Shown: in pieces, positions 42,001 through 45,000 of the stretch
Layout: each line of letters opens with the position of its first letter
Position numbering within the stretch: the stretch's first letter is position 1
DNA from: a virus
Taxonomy: Duplodnaviria > Heunggongvirae > Uroviricota > Caudoviricetes
Virus record (IMG/VR): IMGVR_UViG_2718218100_000003
Length of the DNA: 64,000 bases
Strand: one strand, 5' to 3'
Made by a program: the position numbers

Positions 42001-45000
42001 TGCCGTGAGTGGAGTGTCACGGATAATGCCCGGTACAGTGATTTCAGTTGCACGATAGAGCAGGTGGTGAACTGATGCAGAATATTCATGAAGAAAGCCT
42101 GAACGAGTCGGTTAAGTCAGAGCAGTCACCGCGGGTGGTGCTCTGGGAAATCGACCTGACGGTGCAGGGCGGTGAGCGGTATTTTTTCTGCAATGAGCTG
42201 AATGAAAAAAGGGAGCCGGTGACCTGGCAGGGGCGGCAATATCAGGCGTACCCGATTGAGGGCAGTGGCTTTGAGATGAACGGAAAGGGCAGCAGTGCCC
42301 GCCCGTCGCTGACGGTGTCCAATCTGTTCGGTCTTGTCACCGGGATGGCGGAGGATTTGCAGAGCCTGGTGGGTGCCACGGTGGTCCGCCGCCGGGTGTA
42401 TGCCCGTTTTCTGGATGCGGTGAACTTTGTGGCAGGCAATCCGGAGGCCGACCCGGAGCAGGAGCTGACTGACCGCTGGGTGGTGGAGCAGATGTCATCG
42501 CTGACGGCCATGACGGCCTCGTTTGTGCTGGCCACACCGACCGAGACGGACGGGGCGCTGTTTCCCGGTCGCATCATGCTGGCGAACACCTGTATGTGGG
42601 ATTACCGGGGAGATGAATGCGGGTATAACGGTCCTGCGGTGGCGGATGAGTTCGACAACCCCACCACGGATATCCGTAAGGACAGATGCAGCAAGTGCAT
42701 GCGCGGGTGTGAACTGCGCAGGAATGTCGGCAATTTTGGCGGTTTCCTTTCCATTAATAAACTTTCGCAGTAATGGATTATGCCCACCGTCAGGTGGGTT
42801 TTTTATTTAGTAGTTCTCTCAACTTTTCGTTCTGCTCTCTGAACTTTTCCTGTATTTCTTTTTGCATGGCGATAACCTGGGCTTGAAGTTGAACTAGCGC
42901 ATCAACATTTAGCGGAACCGAGACGCTGTTAATTTTATCTGCTATTTCCCCGAGTGTATTTTCTGCATTCAAGGCATCTTCCAGTATCTGAACAATCTCT
43001 GAGTTCATAGAGCGCCCGTTTCGTTTGGCTCGTTCAGCTATAGCATCTCGCATTCCGTCAGGAAAACGGAGGTTGAACTTGTCGTAGTCTTTTACTTGTT
43101 TTTCGGCCATTGCAAATCTCTCAAAAAAAATCATGGTGCCATATTGCCATACGATTTCAATGGTGGCATTATGGCCTTCATGGCGTCACTTTGGCACCAA
43201 ATAAAGGAGATTAGATAATGCAAGATACACTTTTCACTGAGCGCAAAAATATCAAACTCAACCTTCGCCTTCCATCACGGCTGAATGAAGACCTTCGCCG
43301 CCTGGCGGAAATGGACTGTATATCTCTGAACTCTGCAATTGTTCGTTTGCTGGCAAAAGGTGTTAGGGAAGAGGTGGCGAATGGTCGCTAAAAACAGCGA
43401 AGCCTCAATGGCTGCAACCATTGAGGCTTCTAAATTACCAGTTAACCACGAGAAAACTGATATGACTAGTTTAGCAATTGCAGATCGCACAATCAATGTT
43501 CCATTCCACGGAACAAATCTCTTTTTGGTTGGAATTAACAATGAGCCTTATGTTCCTATGAAGCCTGTTGTTGAAGGTATGGGGATGGTTTGGGCTGCTC
43601 AATTTGTTAAGTTAAAACAGAGGTTTGTCAAAGGTATTTCGGAAATCGAAATACCTTCTGCTGGCGGTAAACAGTTAATGACATGTCTTGCCTTTCGTAA
43701 ATTTGCGGCTTGGCTTTCAAGCATTCAACCAAACAAAGTCCGCCCTGAAATCCGCGACAAGGTAATCCAGTATCAGGAAGAGTGTGACGATGTGCTCTAC
43801 GAGTACTGGACTAAAGGCCATGTGATTAACCCGCGCAAAGCTAAAAAGGCATTGCCGGGGAAAATCACCACTGAACAGCAGGAAGCCATTAAACAACTCG
43901 TCATGAGTCGCGGTCAGTCTCTGCCAAAAGAAAAACAGGCGAAGGCGATGATCACCATGTGGTCGTCACTGAAATCTCATTTTGGGTGTTCATACAAAGA
44001 AATCAGCGAGGAGCAGTTTACCGAAGCTCTGTCACTTGCTGCTCGCGTTCCGCTTGAAGGAGAGTTAATCGGCAAACAAGAGAAGAGCACCAACGAGCTT
44101 TCCGCAAAAGAAGCAAACAGCCTTGTATGGCTATGGGATTATGCCAACCGCTCACAGGCATTATTCCGCGAATTGTATCCAGCGCTAAAGCAAATTCAAT
44201 CGAACTATTCCGGCAGATGTTACAACTACGGTCATGAGTTCTCGTATGTTATTGGAATGGCGAGAGACGTTTTAATCAATCACACACGAGATGTTGATAT
44301 TAATGAGCCAGACGGACCAACGAATCTTTCCGCATGGGTAAGGCTTAAGAACAAAGAATTACCTCCTTCACTACATCACTACTAACAGATTGCCAACGAA
44401 ATGACCCAGCTTCGGCTGGGTTTTTTATCAGGAGTTCTCATGCTCTATAGCAATATATTGGCGCACGCCCGGCGATGTGCGCCAGCGGAGTCGTGCGGCT
44501 TCGTGGTGAGAACGCCGGAGGGGGAGCGGTATATCCCTTGTGTGAATATCTCCGCAGAGCCGGAGGCGTATTTTCGTATTGCGCCGGAAGACTGGCTGCA
44601 GGCAGAGATGCAGGGGGAGATTGTGGCGCTGGTTCACAGCCACCCTGGTGGTCTGCCCTGGCTGAGCGAGGCCGACCGGCGGCTGCAGATAAAGAGTGCC
44701 CTGCCCTGGTGGCTGGTCTGCCGGGGGGAAATTCACAAATTCCGCTGTGTGCCGCACCTGACCGGGCGTCGTTTTGAGCACGGGGTGACGGACTGTTACA
44801 CCCTGTTCCGGGATGCATACCATCTGGCGGGGATAACGCTGCCGGATTTTGTGCGTGAGGATGACTGGTGGCGCAACGGTCAGAACCTTTACCTGGACAA
44901 TATGGCGGCGACTGGTTTTTACCGGGTGCCCCTGTCCTCTGCACAGGCGGGCGATATCCTGCTGTGCTGCTTTGGCGCATCGGTGGCCAATCATGCCGCC

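Follow-up and report, generated by a model that had tools for sequence, protein, structure and literature searches.

What is a 1.65-kb cassette of repressor-like and antirepressor genes doing in the tail operon of a prophage, between L and K, and is it a known kind of immunity module or a new one? The locus that raises this question lies in a Stx2c-type prophage that occupies the sbcB locus of E. coli O157:H7, and we analysed it in a window of 64,000 nucleotides (IMG/VR virus record IMGVR_UViG_2718218100_000003, the whole stretch of DNA considered here), for which the RefSeq coding sequences (CDSs) come from the identical record NC_049944. Comparison with Salmonella phage P22 makes it highly probable that the L/K interval holds a P22 immI-type antirepressor cassette, whose homology to the mnt-arc-sar-ant region of that phage runs over its full length. 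The features of the interval are as follows:

42075..42773, plus strand: tail gene L, the left flank (Pfam Phage_tail_L, E 2e-93; RefSeq CDS)
42774-44428: the cassette, comprising mnt-like (minus), arc-like (plus), candidate sar-like RNA (minus) and ant (plus), with a hairpin at each end
42775..42789, plus strand: 15-mer GGATTATGCCCACCG at the extreme left end of the cassette
42782..42806, plus strand: left boundary hairpin and T-run, after L (terminator scan; -13.4 kcal/mol, z -4.0)
42790..43110, minus strand: mnt-like gene, 106 aa (Pfam Arc, E 1.5e-20)
43111..43217, no strand assigned: divergent control region, 107 bp, partly dyad-symmetric (promoter scan, repeats)
43134-43146/43187-43199 and 43138-43149/43164-43175: inverted repeats in the spacer
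43144-43149 (-35, TTGCCA) and 43167-43172 (-10, CATTAT), plus strand: candidate Pant (promoter scan)
43197-43192 (-35) and 43173-43168 (-10), minus strand: candidate Pmnt (promoter scan)
43218..43391, plus strand: arc-like gene, 57 aa, ribbon-helix-helix (Pfam Arc, E 1.4e-4)
43381..44385, plus strand: ant, 334 aa (Pfam P22_AR_N, E 1.2e-39; P22_AR_C, E 4.5e-29)
43396..43462, minus strand: candidate sar-like antisense RNA, two stem-loops (Rfam RF00262 sar)
44403..44428, plus strand: ant terminator, the right end of the cassette (terminator scan; -14.8 kcal/mol, z -4.1)
44429..44457, plus strand: short joint between the ant terminator and the body of K (alignments, RefSeq)
44440 (start): tail gene K, the right flank (JAB and NlpC/P60; RefSeq CDS)

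The window contains CI (HTH_3 and Peptidase_S24, 7936-8592), Cro, CII, Q and StxA, and the genes upstream of the cassette on the same strand are Q, stx and the lysis, head and tail genes, which places the cassette downstream of Q and pR', within the tail operon. In lambda and BP-4795, L and K lie 5-10 nt apart, and junction alignments show that the cassette replaces that junction: homology to these two phages ends at the L stop codon, and most relatives align only as far as 42773. At the other end, the joint gives K a new AGGAG ribosome-binding site, its start codon (44440) and its first codons, MLYSNI, where the N-terminus in lambda and BP-4795 reads MTQTESAI. The GC content of the cassette is 42-48%, against 55-63% in the flanks. 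Extra DNA, flanking terminators and deviant GC, which mark a moron in the sense of Hendrix/Juhala 2000, are thus all present, with the promoters predicted only; judged by these sequence features, the cassette is an insulated, lower-GC "moron" inside a lambda-like late operon. A preliminary description of this DNA had placed a P22 immI-like module, with a divergent pair of ribbon-helix-helix (RHH) genes and an antirepressor gene, inside an otherwise lambda-like tail cluster. This account stands: Pfam domains, P22 identities and flanking genes agree on the module, the L/K distance in lambda and BP-4795 and the GC contrast agree on the surrounding cluster, and all three genes, together with the 43111-43217 spacer, lie where they had been placed.

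The two repressor-like genes occupy opposite strands on either side of the 107-bp spacer, and both ORFs match Pfam Arc. The Mnt-like protein ("Arc family DNA-binding protein" in RefSeq) consists of an N-terminal RHH domain and a C-terminal extension of ~50 aa, and over the RHH domain it is 50% identical to P22 Mnt (45.8 bits, versus 38.9 bits for P22 Arc). It has the traits of a Mnt orthologue, being the longer RHH protein, transcribed away from ant and equipped with a C-terminal extension (whose role in tetramerisation is putative); moreover, both here and in P22 the 3' end of mnt encodes KKPT*/KKTT* within the same hairpin. The arc-like gene ("Arc-like repressor" in RefSeq) shares the orientation of ant and is preceded, at a distance of 8 nt, by the ribosome-binding site AAGGAG. 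Its product is 30% identical to P22 Arc (24.6 bits) and scores equally against P22 Mnt (25.0 bits), so that the label "arc" rests on size (57 aa, close to the ~53 aa of an Arc protein) and on position as first gene of the ant operon. Ant, named "anti-repressor Ant" in RefSeq, carries P22_AR_N at ~43495-43824 and P22_AR_C at ~44080-44298 and is 55% identical to P22 Ant (E 6e-118), the last ~105 aa being >90% identical. Its start is ambiguous: RefSeq places it at 43381 (334 aa, with an 11-nt overlap with arc), and a second ATG at 43462 (307 aa) aligns with the start of P22 Ant; the N-terminal extension that the earlier start would add is kept in frame in four other cassettes. NCBIfam holds no specific model for Arc or Ant, and a PDB sequence search with Ant returned no match.

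Between arc and the ant start equivalent to that of P22 lies a structured antisense element that is probably a sar-like RNA. It matches the full RF00262 model (positions 1-68) with 29.5 bits and an E value of 0.0024, a score below the gathering score of 43, at a place that is syntenic with P22. Its predicted fold has -35.7 kcal/mol (z -7.1), the terminator scan finds its 3' stem-loop at 43399-43430 followed by a minus-strand T-run, and the element is antisense to the ribosome-binding site and the ATG at 43462. The hairpin is kept in six cassettes, with three pairs altered on both sides, and a -10-like TAnAnT hexamer stands on the minus strand at codons 3-4 in five of the six, the one in phage Oslo being shifted by 3 nt.

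The signals in the control region are less certain. The promoter scan gave four sites against 2.7 +/- 1.8 expected from shuffles, which is not above chance, and the promoters are therefore kept as candidates only; the -35 of the candidate Pant aligns with TTGACA in SPN3UB, a Klebsiella phage and Oslo. The spacer holds the motif ATGGTGCCAT three times, and the outer repeat arms TGGTGCCA/TGGCACCA become TGGGGCCA/TGGCCCCA in SPN3UB, both arms being altered. The operator sequences of P22 Arc and Mnt were sought in the spacer and are absent, only unrelated inverted repeats being present, so that operators here are likewise only candidates. A scan of 42774-44428 for a LexA box (CTGT-N8-ACAG, at most one mismatch) gave no match, and the module thus does not belong to the SOS-coupled antirepressors.

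The 3' end of ant has a counterpart elsewhere in the window, where the following features are found:

15074-15273 and 16587-17067, plus strand: antB pseudogene, split by IS629
15274-16583: IS629, 1310 bp (inverted repeats of 26 nt, target duplication CAG)
16753..17110, plus strand: repeat partner in the nin region, the AR_C coding part of antB with its terminator
17136-17864: roi homologue, the gene next after antB (Rha and KilAC/ANT domains; named roi in JLK-2012)

BLASTN aligns 44071-44428 with 16753-17110 at 83.0% identity over 359 nt (E 1e-102), the encoded proteins are 82% identical over 104 aa, and the window holds exactly two copies of the terminator core CCCAGCTTCGGCTGGG, at 17087 and 44405. 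The internal repeat is real and far beyond chance, and the earlier statement that ant shares a domain and a terminator with the nin pseudogene is borne out. The repeat had been given as 16790..17110 versus 44090..44427 with ~85% identity; it is slightly longer than that, and its identity is 2% lower. Likewise, IS629 does disrupt the nin gene (this copy and the IS629 annotated in VT2-Sakai are 100% identical), but the gene is not the roi-like one that had been named. A roi-like gene (Rha or Bro-type N-domain with KilAC/ANT) is ruled out, since the restored reading frame encodes a 226-aa protein of ORF6N and P22_AR_C that is identical to antB of phage 2851, and roi is the neighbour.

The two ends of the cassette bear on how it may have been exchanged. 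The left hairpin resembles an intrinsic terminator of the plus strand and overlaps with the stop codon of mnt; a homologous hairpin stands at the 3' end of mnt in P22 (CCGCCGTCAGGTGGTTTTTTT in P22, CCCACCGTCAGGTGGGTTTTTT here). On the minus strand, no T-run follows the hairpin. The core of the ant terminator is identical to those of the P22 ant terminator and the antB terminator (17085-17110). The 15-mer GGATTATGCCCACCG matches 14 of 15 bases of the AR_C codons W-D-Y-A-N-R (44136-44150 and 16818-16832). Outside AR_C, no other stretch of the cassette matches the AR_C of antB at 14/15 or better, none of 40 shuffles had any such match, and the 15-mer coincides with the left crossover point in phage JLK-2012. 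In that phage the same cassette (98.8% identity) sits within the ORF6N-AR_C gene of the nin region, and the two AR_C copies show patches of conversion; the whole cassette has evidently moved between tail and nin sites. The constant part of these antirepressors is P22_AR_C, whose N-terminal partner is P22_AR_N, ORF6N or Bro-N depending on the gene; these three partners, together with the recombination between AR_C copies in JLK-2012, uphold the preliminary proposal of domain shuffling between antirepressor families. The AR_C and terminator stretch common to ant and antB is best explained as a recombination handle for the exchange of both whole cassettes and N-domains.

The junction of L with the cassette is present in 284 of 5426 complete E. 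coli genomes, as compared with a single genome of the JLK-2012 (nin) type, and the host of JLK-2012 is O55:H7. The L/K insertion may descend from the nin arrangement or the reverse may hold: counts of 1 versus 284, an O55:H7 host and conversion patches are together compatible with transfer in either direction. Over 691 nt, mnt-arc is 99.7-100% identical in 21 phage records; much of this apparent conservation of the cassette may reflect clonal sampling of O157. The cassette has already been sequenced and annotated in many Stx phages, and is ordinary rather than new: common as it is, as a genome feature it is textbook modular phage evolution and not a new kind of system.

What, then, could the cassette do? 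In P22, loss of Mnt induces the prophage, and the genetics of that phage, by Susskind & Botstein, Susskind & Youderian and Liao/Wu/Susskind, is the source from which function is here transferred. By analogy, the Mnt-like protein made from Pmnt in a lysogen would hold Pant shut, no Ant would be made, and the S24-type CI (7936-8592) would keep the prophage. Upon infection, or when Mnt is lost, Pant would fire; the Arc-like protein would then turn both promoters down again, and the sar-like RNA would pair with the ribosome-binding site of ant and limit its translation. Ant itself would bind CI-type repressors non-covalently and inactivate them without RecA. Late transcription of the Q-antiterminated operon should also pass both hairpins and so yield arc-ant transcripts whatever the state of Mnt. 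On the strength of the homology to P22, there would be a "second, independently regulated route to induction", as put forward in the preliminary description. The CI of the prophage is already of the RecA-cleavable type and no physiological signal for the removal of Mnt is known, both of which count against the P22-type reading.

Antirepressors bring about a RecA-independent loss of repression, and their action can extend to further prophages that share the cell. It is quite possible, at somewhat less than an even chance, that Ant serves here mainly in trans, as a weapon or a means of crosstalk that inactivates the repressors of other lambdoid prophages resident in the cell; made on infection and by late-operon read-through, it would couple the induction of co-residents or permit growth in heteroimmune lysogens. 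Late read-through is to be expected from the position of the cassette downstream of Q and pR' in the tail operon, Mnt by design silences Pant in an established lysogen, and O157 carries many lambdoid prophages, Stx2a and Stx1 phages included. There are also precedents, in that P22 Ant acts on several lambdoid repressors (PMC3064807) and the induction of the Salmonella Gifsy and Fels prophages is coordinated by antirepressors acting in trans (PMC3121763). The Gifsy antirepressors, however, are controlled by LexA, whereas the cassette has no LexA box; moreover, the target repressors of Ant are not readable from its sequence, and such a role is compatible with P22-like control of immunity rather than exclusive of it. 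In contrast, we regard it as very unlikely that the cassette hitch-hikes as an inert remnant and now serves no function in these prophages. While the IS629 insertion in antB, the other AR_C gene of the prophage, indicates that loss of an antirepressor is tolerated, functional data on the tail cassette were not found in the literature and its apparent conservation may largely mirror clonal O157 sampling, the three ORFs are intact and have ribosome-binding sites, and cassettes of 65-75% identity from Salmonella and Klebsiella phages retain the hairpins, the -35 and the antisense element. The cassette is, in addition, carried by active phages that form plaques or have been induced (2851, 1717, YYZ-2008 and phi330).

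At odds with the homology to P22 is the idea that "Ant" is a DNA-binding regulator or a defence protein, from the world of KilA-N, Bro-N and ORF6N, under RHH control. Relatives do fuse AR_C to Bro-N or ORF6N, domains that are widely held to serve viral regulators as DNA-binding modules (Iyer, Koonin & Aravind 2002), and KilA-N proteins, BstA among them, reportedly function in abortive infection. Yet Ant is 55% identical over its full length, and >90% in AR_C, to P22 Ant, whose antirepressor activity was shown by classical genetic and biochemical work, and the regulatory architecture is the same as in P22, which makes a DNA-binding or defence role extremely improbable. Returning to the P22-type cassette, it is tempting to join the strands into one picture, which we consider unlikely as a whole: a portable immunity unit that would hop between nin and tail sites via AR_C with its terminator and the AR_C-derived 15-mer, that would derepress co-resident prophages through a late burst of Ant, and whose two Ant isoforms (starting at 43381 and 43462) would differ in sensitivity to the sar-like RNA. 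If this were true, induction of a low-toxin Stx2c-type prophage would be relayed to Stx2a, Stx1 and other lambdoid prophages and would modulate toxin output. For O157:H7, the relevance lies in the amount of Shiga toxin made and in the spread of stx phages, and the role of the cassette in the induction of Stx2c/Stx1a phages and in prophage crosstalk is a testable question.

Literature on the L/K cassette, on immI in E. coli prophages and on Ant in Stx phages yielded general mentions only. Fogg 2011 credits "a similar antirepressor" to Strauch et al. 2008 on phage 2851, and Ogura 2015 identifies WGPS8 as an stx2c phage at sbcB, with antirepressors unmentioned. The cassette itself is found at the same L/K position in the Stx phages 2851 (FM180578), 1717, YYZ-2008, Stx2a_WGPS4/6/8, F349, phi330 and several Stx1a phages, with 98.3-100% nucleotide identity over a 1801-nt query spanning the entire cassette together with its flanks in L and K. 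These copies differ in nothing of substance, except that mnt is unannotated in some GenBank records and that IS629 in antB is extra here. The nin-region Ant of the phi24B/933W/Sakai type (antB of 2851) has AR_C (82% aa identity) and the terminator in common with the tail ant, but bears an ORF6N N-domain and is transcribed along with the delayed-early nin genes, free of Mnt/Arc/sar control; in the window it is inactivated by IS629. In phi24B, the AR_C-bearing Ant promotes activation of the late promoter after norfloxacin, which favours the P22-type reading, and deletion of ant left superinfection immunity unchanged, which speaks against it (PMC3064807). The LexA-controlled antirepressors (Gifsy GfoA/GfhA, the Fels-1 homologue, 186 Tum and N15 AntC) are also small repressor-binding inactivators that can act in trans (PMC3121763). 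They are, however, unrelated to Ant in sequence and are switched on by LexA cleavage, whereas a dedicated RHH pair and no LexA box are found here.

Closer in their control are the Bro-N and AR_C cassettes of ES18-like Salmonella phages (SPN3UB, S107), Klebsiella prophages and E. coli phage PhiR5_1, which are governed by mnt/arc as here, and the cassette of phage Oslo, which is of the AR_N type. All share the divergent RHH pair, the arc-ant overlap, the hairpin after arc and the AR_C C-terminus, and they too are inserted in late/tail or nin regions. They differ in a mnt-arc part of 65-85% nucleotide identity, in the Bro-N effector domain of the SPN3UB type and in their insertion sites, of which one separates the tail chaperone genes from the tape measure gene and another separates ren from ninB. 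The closest model remains P22 immI, although P22 is a podovirus in which the region is placed between gene 16/sieA and gene 9, whereas the present cassette is placed between L and K of a lambda-like siphovirus. The control region and candidate operators here are unrelated to P22 O_arc and O_mnt, Mnt has 106 aa as against 83 aa, and an in-frame ATG overlapping arc might give Ant an N-terminal extension of 27 aa that P22 lacks. Against these differences stand the same gene order, orientation and sizes on the annotated P22 immI map, proteins with 50% (Mnt RHH), 30% (Arc) and 55% (Ant; AR_C >90%) identity, a nearly identical mnt 3' hairpin and ant terminator, a candidate antisense element between arc and ant, and a place in the late operon immediately upstream of tail genes.

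The window, from E. coli O157:H7, is an Stx-converting prophage of lambdoid type whose plus strand holds lambda-like head and tail genes; it also has genes for Cro, CII, Q, StxA (RIP domain) and three tRNAs. Three tRNAs between Q and stxA are the usual arrangement in Stx2 phages. Between its tail genes lies the mnt-like, arc-like and ant gene set that the preliminary description had put there, and Pfam domains agree with that assignment:

Prophage landmarks and genes of the tail cassette
7936-8592, minus strand: CI (HTH_3 + Peptidase_S24)
19930-20173: tRNA genes Met-CAT, Arg-TCG and Arg-TCT, between Q and stxA
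20197-21225: stxA, RIP-domain ORF
42790-43110, minus strand: mnt-like gene, 106 aa (Pfam Arc, 1.5e-20)
43218-43391, plus strand: arc-like gene, 57 aa (Pfam Arc, 1.4e-4)
43381-44385, plus strand: ant (P22_AR_N, 1.2e-39; P22_AR_C, 4.5e-29)
Flanking genes: L (Phage_tail_L) and K (JAB + NlpC/P60)

This is a real P22-type immI cassette, already annotated (RefSeq names: "Arc family DNA-binding protein", "Arc-like repressor" and "anti-repressor Ant"), and comparison with the annotated P22 map bears out the proposed kinship with P22 immI by homology over the whole cassette. The ribbon-helix-helix domain of the mnt-like protein is 50% identical to P22 Mnt, which scores above Arc. The arc-like protein shares 30% identity with P22 Arc and is equally close to P22 Mnt, so that it owes its name to size and position. 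Ant is 55% identical to P22 Ant overall and more than 90% identical in the last ~105 residues; both the ant terminator and a hairpin (CCCACCGTCAGGTGGGTTTTTT, 42782-42806) overlapping the stop codon of mnt differ little from their P22 counterparts.

The cassette's layout is that of a classical "moron". Whereas 5-10 nt separate the L stop from the K start in lambda and BP-4795, here 42774-44428 and a 29-nt joint take the place of that junction, in keeping with the suggested insertion into a lambda-like tail cluster. The first codons of K are rewritten (MLYSNI instead of MTQTESAI), the joint (44429-44457) gives K a new AGGAG ribosome-binding site, GC content drops from 55-63% in the flanks to 42-48% within the cassette, and scanning and folding place terminator-type hairpins at both cassette ends. 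The region 42700-44500 is 100% identical to "Stx2a_WGPS8" (AP012540/NC_049944), for Ogura et al. an stx2c phage with sbcB as its integration site, and 98.3-99.2% identical to 2851, YYZ-2008, 1717, WGPS4/6, F349, phi330 and several Stx1a phages. Among 5426 complete E. coli genomes, 267 carry at least 80% of this region and 284 the exact junction of L with the cassette.

The spacer between the mnt-like and arc-like genes singled out earlier (43111-43217) is the presumed control region. Its candidate promoters, TTGCCA-17-CATTAT on the plus strand and GTGCCA-18-CATAAT on the minus strand, overlap and face each other across a common -10 region, and the plus-strand -35 element aligns with TTGACA in three relatives; promoter-like sites in this region are no commoner than in shuffles. 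An outer inverted repeat, TGGTGCCA...TGGCACCA (43134-43141 and 43192-43199), reads TGGGGCCA...TGGCCCCA in the ES18-like Salmonella phage SPN3UB, the pattern of change expected of candidate operator half-sites. P22's own operators were not found in the control region, and immI specificity therefore differs. No LexA box was found within the cassette. Outside the prophage end, a perfect LexA-box-like palindrome (CTGTATATAAAAACAG, 56257-56272) precedes by 17 nt a 157-aa ORF (56289-56762), presumably host sbmC, next to dacD and sbcB.

The cassette also likely encodes a sar-like antisense RNA, absent from the preliminary description. In P22, sar fills the 68-nt spacer between arc and ant. Here the Rfam model for sar aligns in full with minus-strand nucleotides 43396-43462 (E 0.0024; 29.5 bits, short of the gathering score of 43), and an 81-nt stretch folds into two stem-loops (-35.7 kcal/mol, z -7.1). 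A 14-bp hairpin (43399-43430) with a minus-strand T-run behind it is conserved across six cassettes; three of its pairs differ at both partners. In five of the six, a minus-strand TAnAnT hexamer lies at codons 3-4 past the P22-equivalent ATG (shifted 3 nt in Oslo), a position kept despite differing downstream proteins.

The start of ant is ambiguous between 43381 and 43462. RefSeq chooses 43381, giving an 11-nt overlap with arc; this ATG and the open, in-frame 27-codon extension behind it (43381-43461) are common to the cassettes of SPN3UB, a Klebsiella prophage, PhiR5_1 and Oslo, among which indels in the extension are multiples of three. P22 Ant, however, lacks this extension, which would be read through the sar-terminator hairpin, and it is the ATG at 43462, covered by the sar-like RNA, that corresponds in alignment to the start of P22 Ant. 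Translation may begin at both sites, and Ant may therefore come in two isoforms.

The claimed repeat between the 3′ end of ant with its terminator and a nin-region pseudogene was recovered (44071-44428 versus 16753-17110; 83.0% over 359 nt, E 1e-102; 82% over 104 aa at the protein level), as was the IS629 disruption of the latter:

Nin-region features
15274-16583: IS629, 1310 bp, with 26-nt inverted repeats and a CAG duplication
17136-17864: roi homologue (Rha N-domain + KilAC/ANT C-domain), aligning with roi as named in JLK-2012, a phage of E. coli O55:H7 DEC5E

The element is 100% identical to the annotated VT2-Sakai IS629. With it removed, the interrupted gene encodes 226 aa with ORF6N and P22_AR_C domains, the same protein as phage 2851 antB; the label "roi-like" thus falls, and the structural description is otherwise right. 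The roi homologue, a third antirepressor-type gene, directly follows the antB terminator, which brings the prophage to four antirepressor-like genes. Just upstream of antB lies a second, intact ORF6N gene (antA-like, 14060-14818), which shares its middle part with antB and contains a 30-nt tandem repeat (3.1 copies, 14252-14345) encoding NSQNLRVTLS repeats.

The suggested domain shuffling is likewise upheld, with P22_AR_C as the constant part. This domain ends every mnt/arc-controlled effector examined, behind P22_AR_N (window, Oslo and P22) or Bro-N (SPN3UB, Klebsiella and PhiR5_1), while antB combines it with ORF6N. Related cassettes elsewhere sit between the tail chaperone and tape measure genes, or between ren and ninB. 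In JLK-2012, the window's cassette (98.8%) lies inside the nin-region ORF6N-AR_C gene and the L/K site is empty, an arrangement found in 1 genome versus 284 with the tail arrangement. Its left junction falls within a 15-mer, GGATTATGCC[C/A]ACCG, with which the window's cassette begins on the left, immediately downstream of the L stop codon (42775-42789), and which matches 14 of 15 bases of the AR_C W-D-Y-A-N-R codons (44136-44150 and 16818-16832). No other match of at least 14/15 links the rest of the cassette to AR_C, and 0 of 40 shuffles gave one; the 15-mer may be the footprint of an older AR_C-adjacent arrangement. The right end of the JLK-2012 cassette is converted to the nin type, with another such patch within AR_C. 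The ant gene of JLK-2012 is of antB type in two short stretches, 4840-4900 and 5100-5130 of that sequence (L010), and tail-type in the remainder, a patchwork that suggests gene conversion between two AR_C copies. Taken together, the junctions, the nin-type patches and the unique 15-mer argue that the shared AR_C and terminator are an active recombination handle.

Our additions are small: a likely sar-like RNA, an ambiguous start codon for ant, the role of AR_C as constant domain and the relocation seen in JLK-2012. The functional interpretation, a second route to induction, is plausible. By analogy with P22, the Mnt-like protein would repress Pant in the lysogen; upon infection or Mnt loss, Pant would yield Arc and Ant, after which Arc would close both promoters. 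The sar-like RNA would block the ant ribosome-binding site, Ant would bind CI-type repressors without cleavage, and Q-modified late transcription would read through the cassette. In phi24B, deletion of an AR_C-type Ant left superinfection unchanged and late-promoter activity after norfloxacin at ~27-56% of wild type (PMC3064807).
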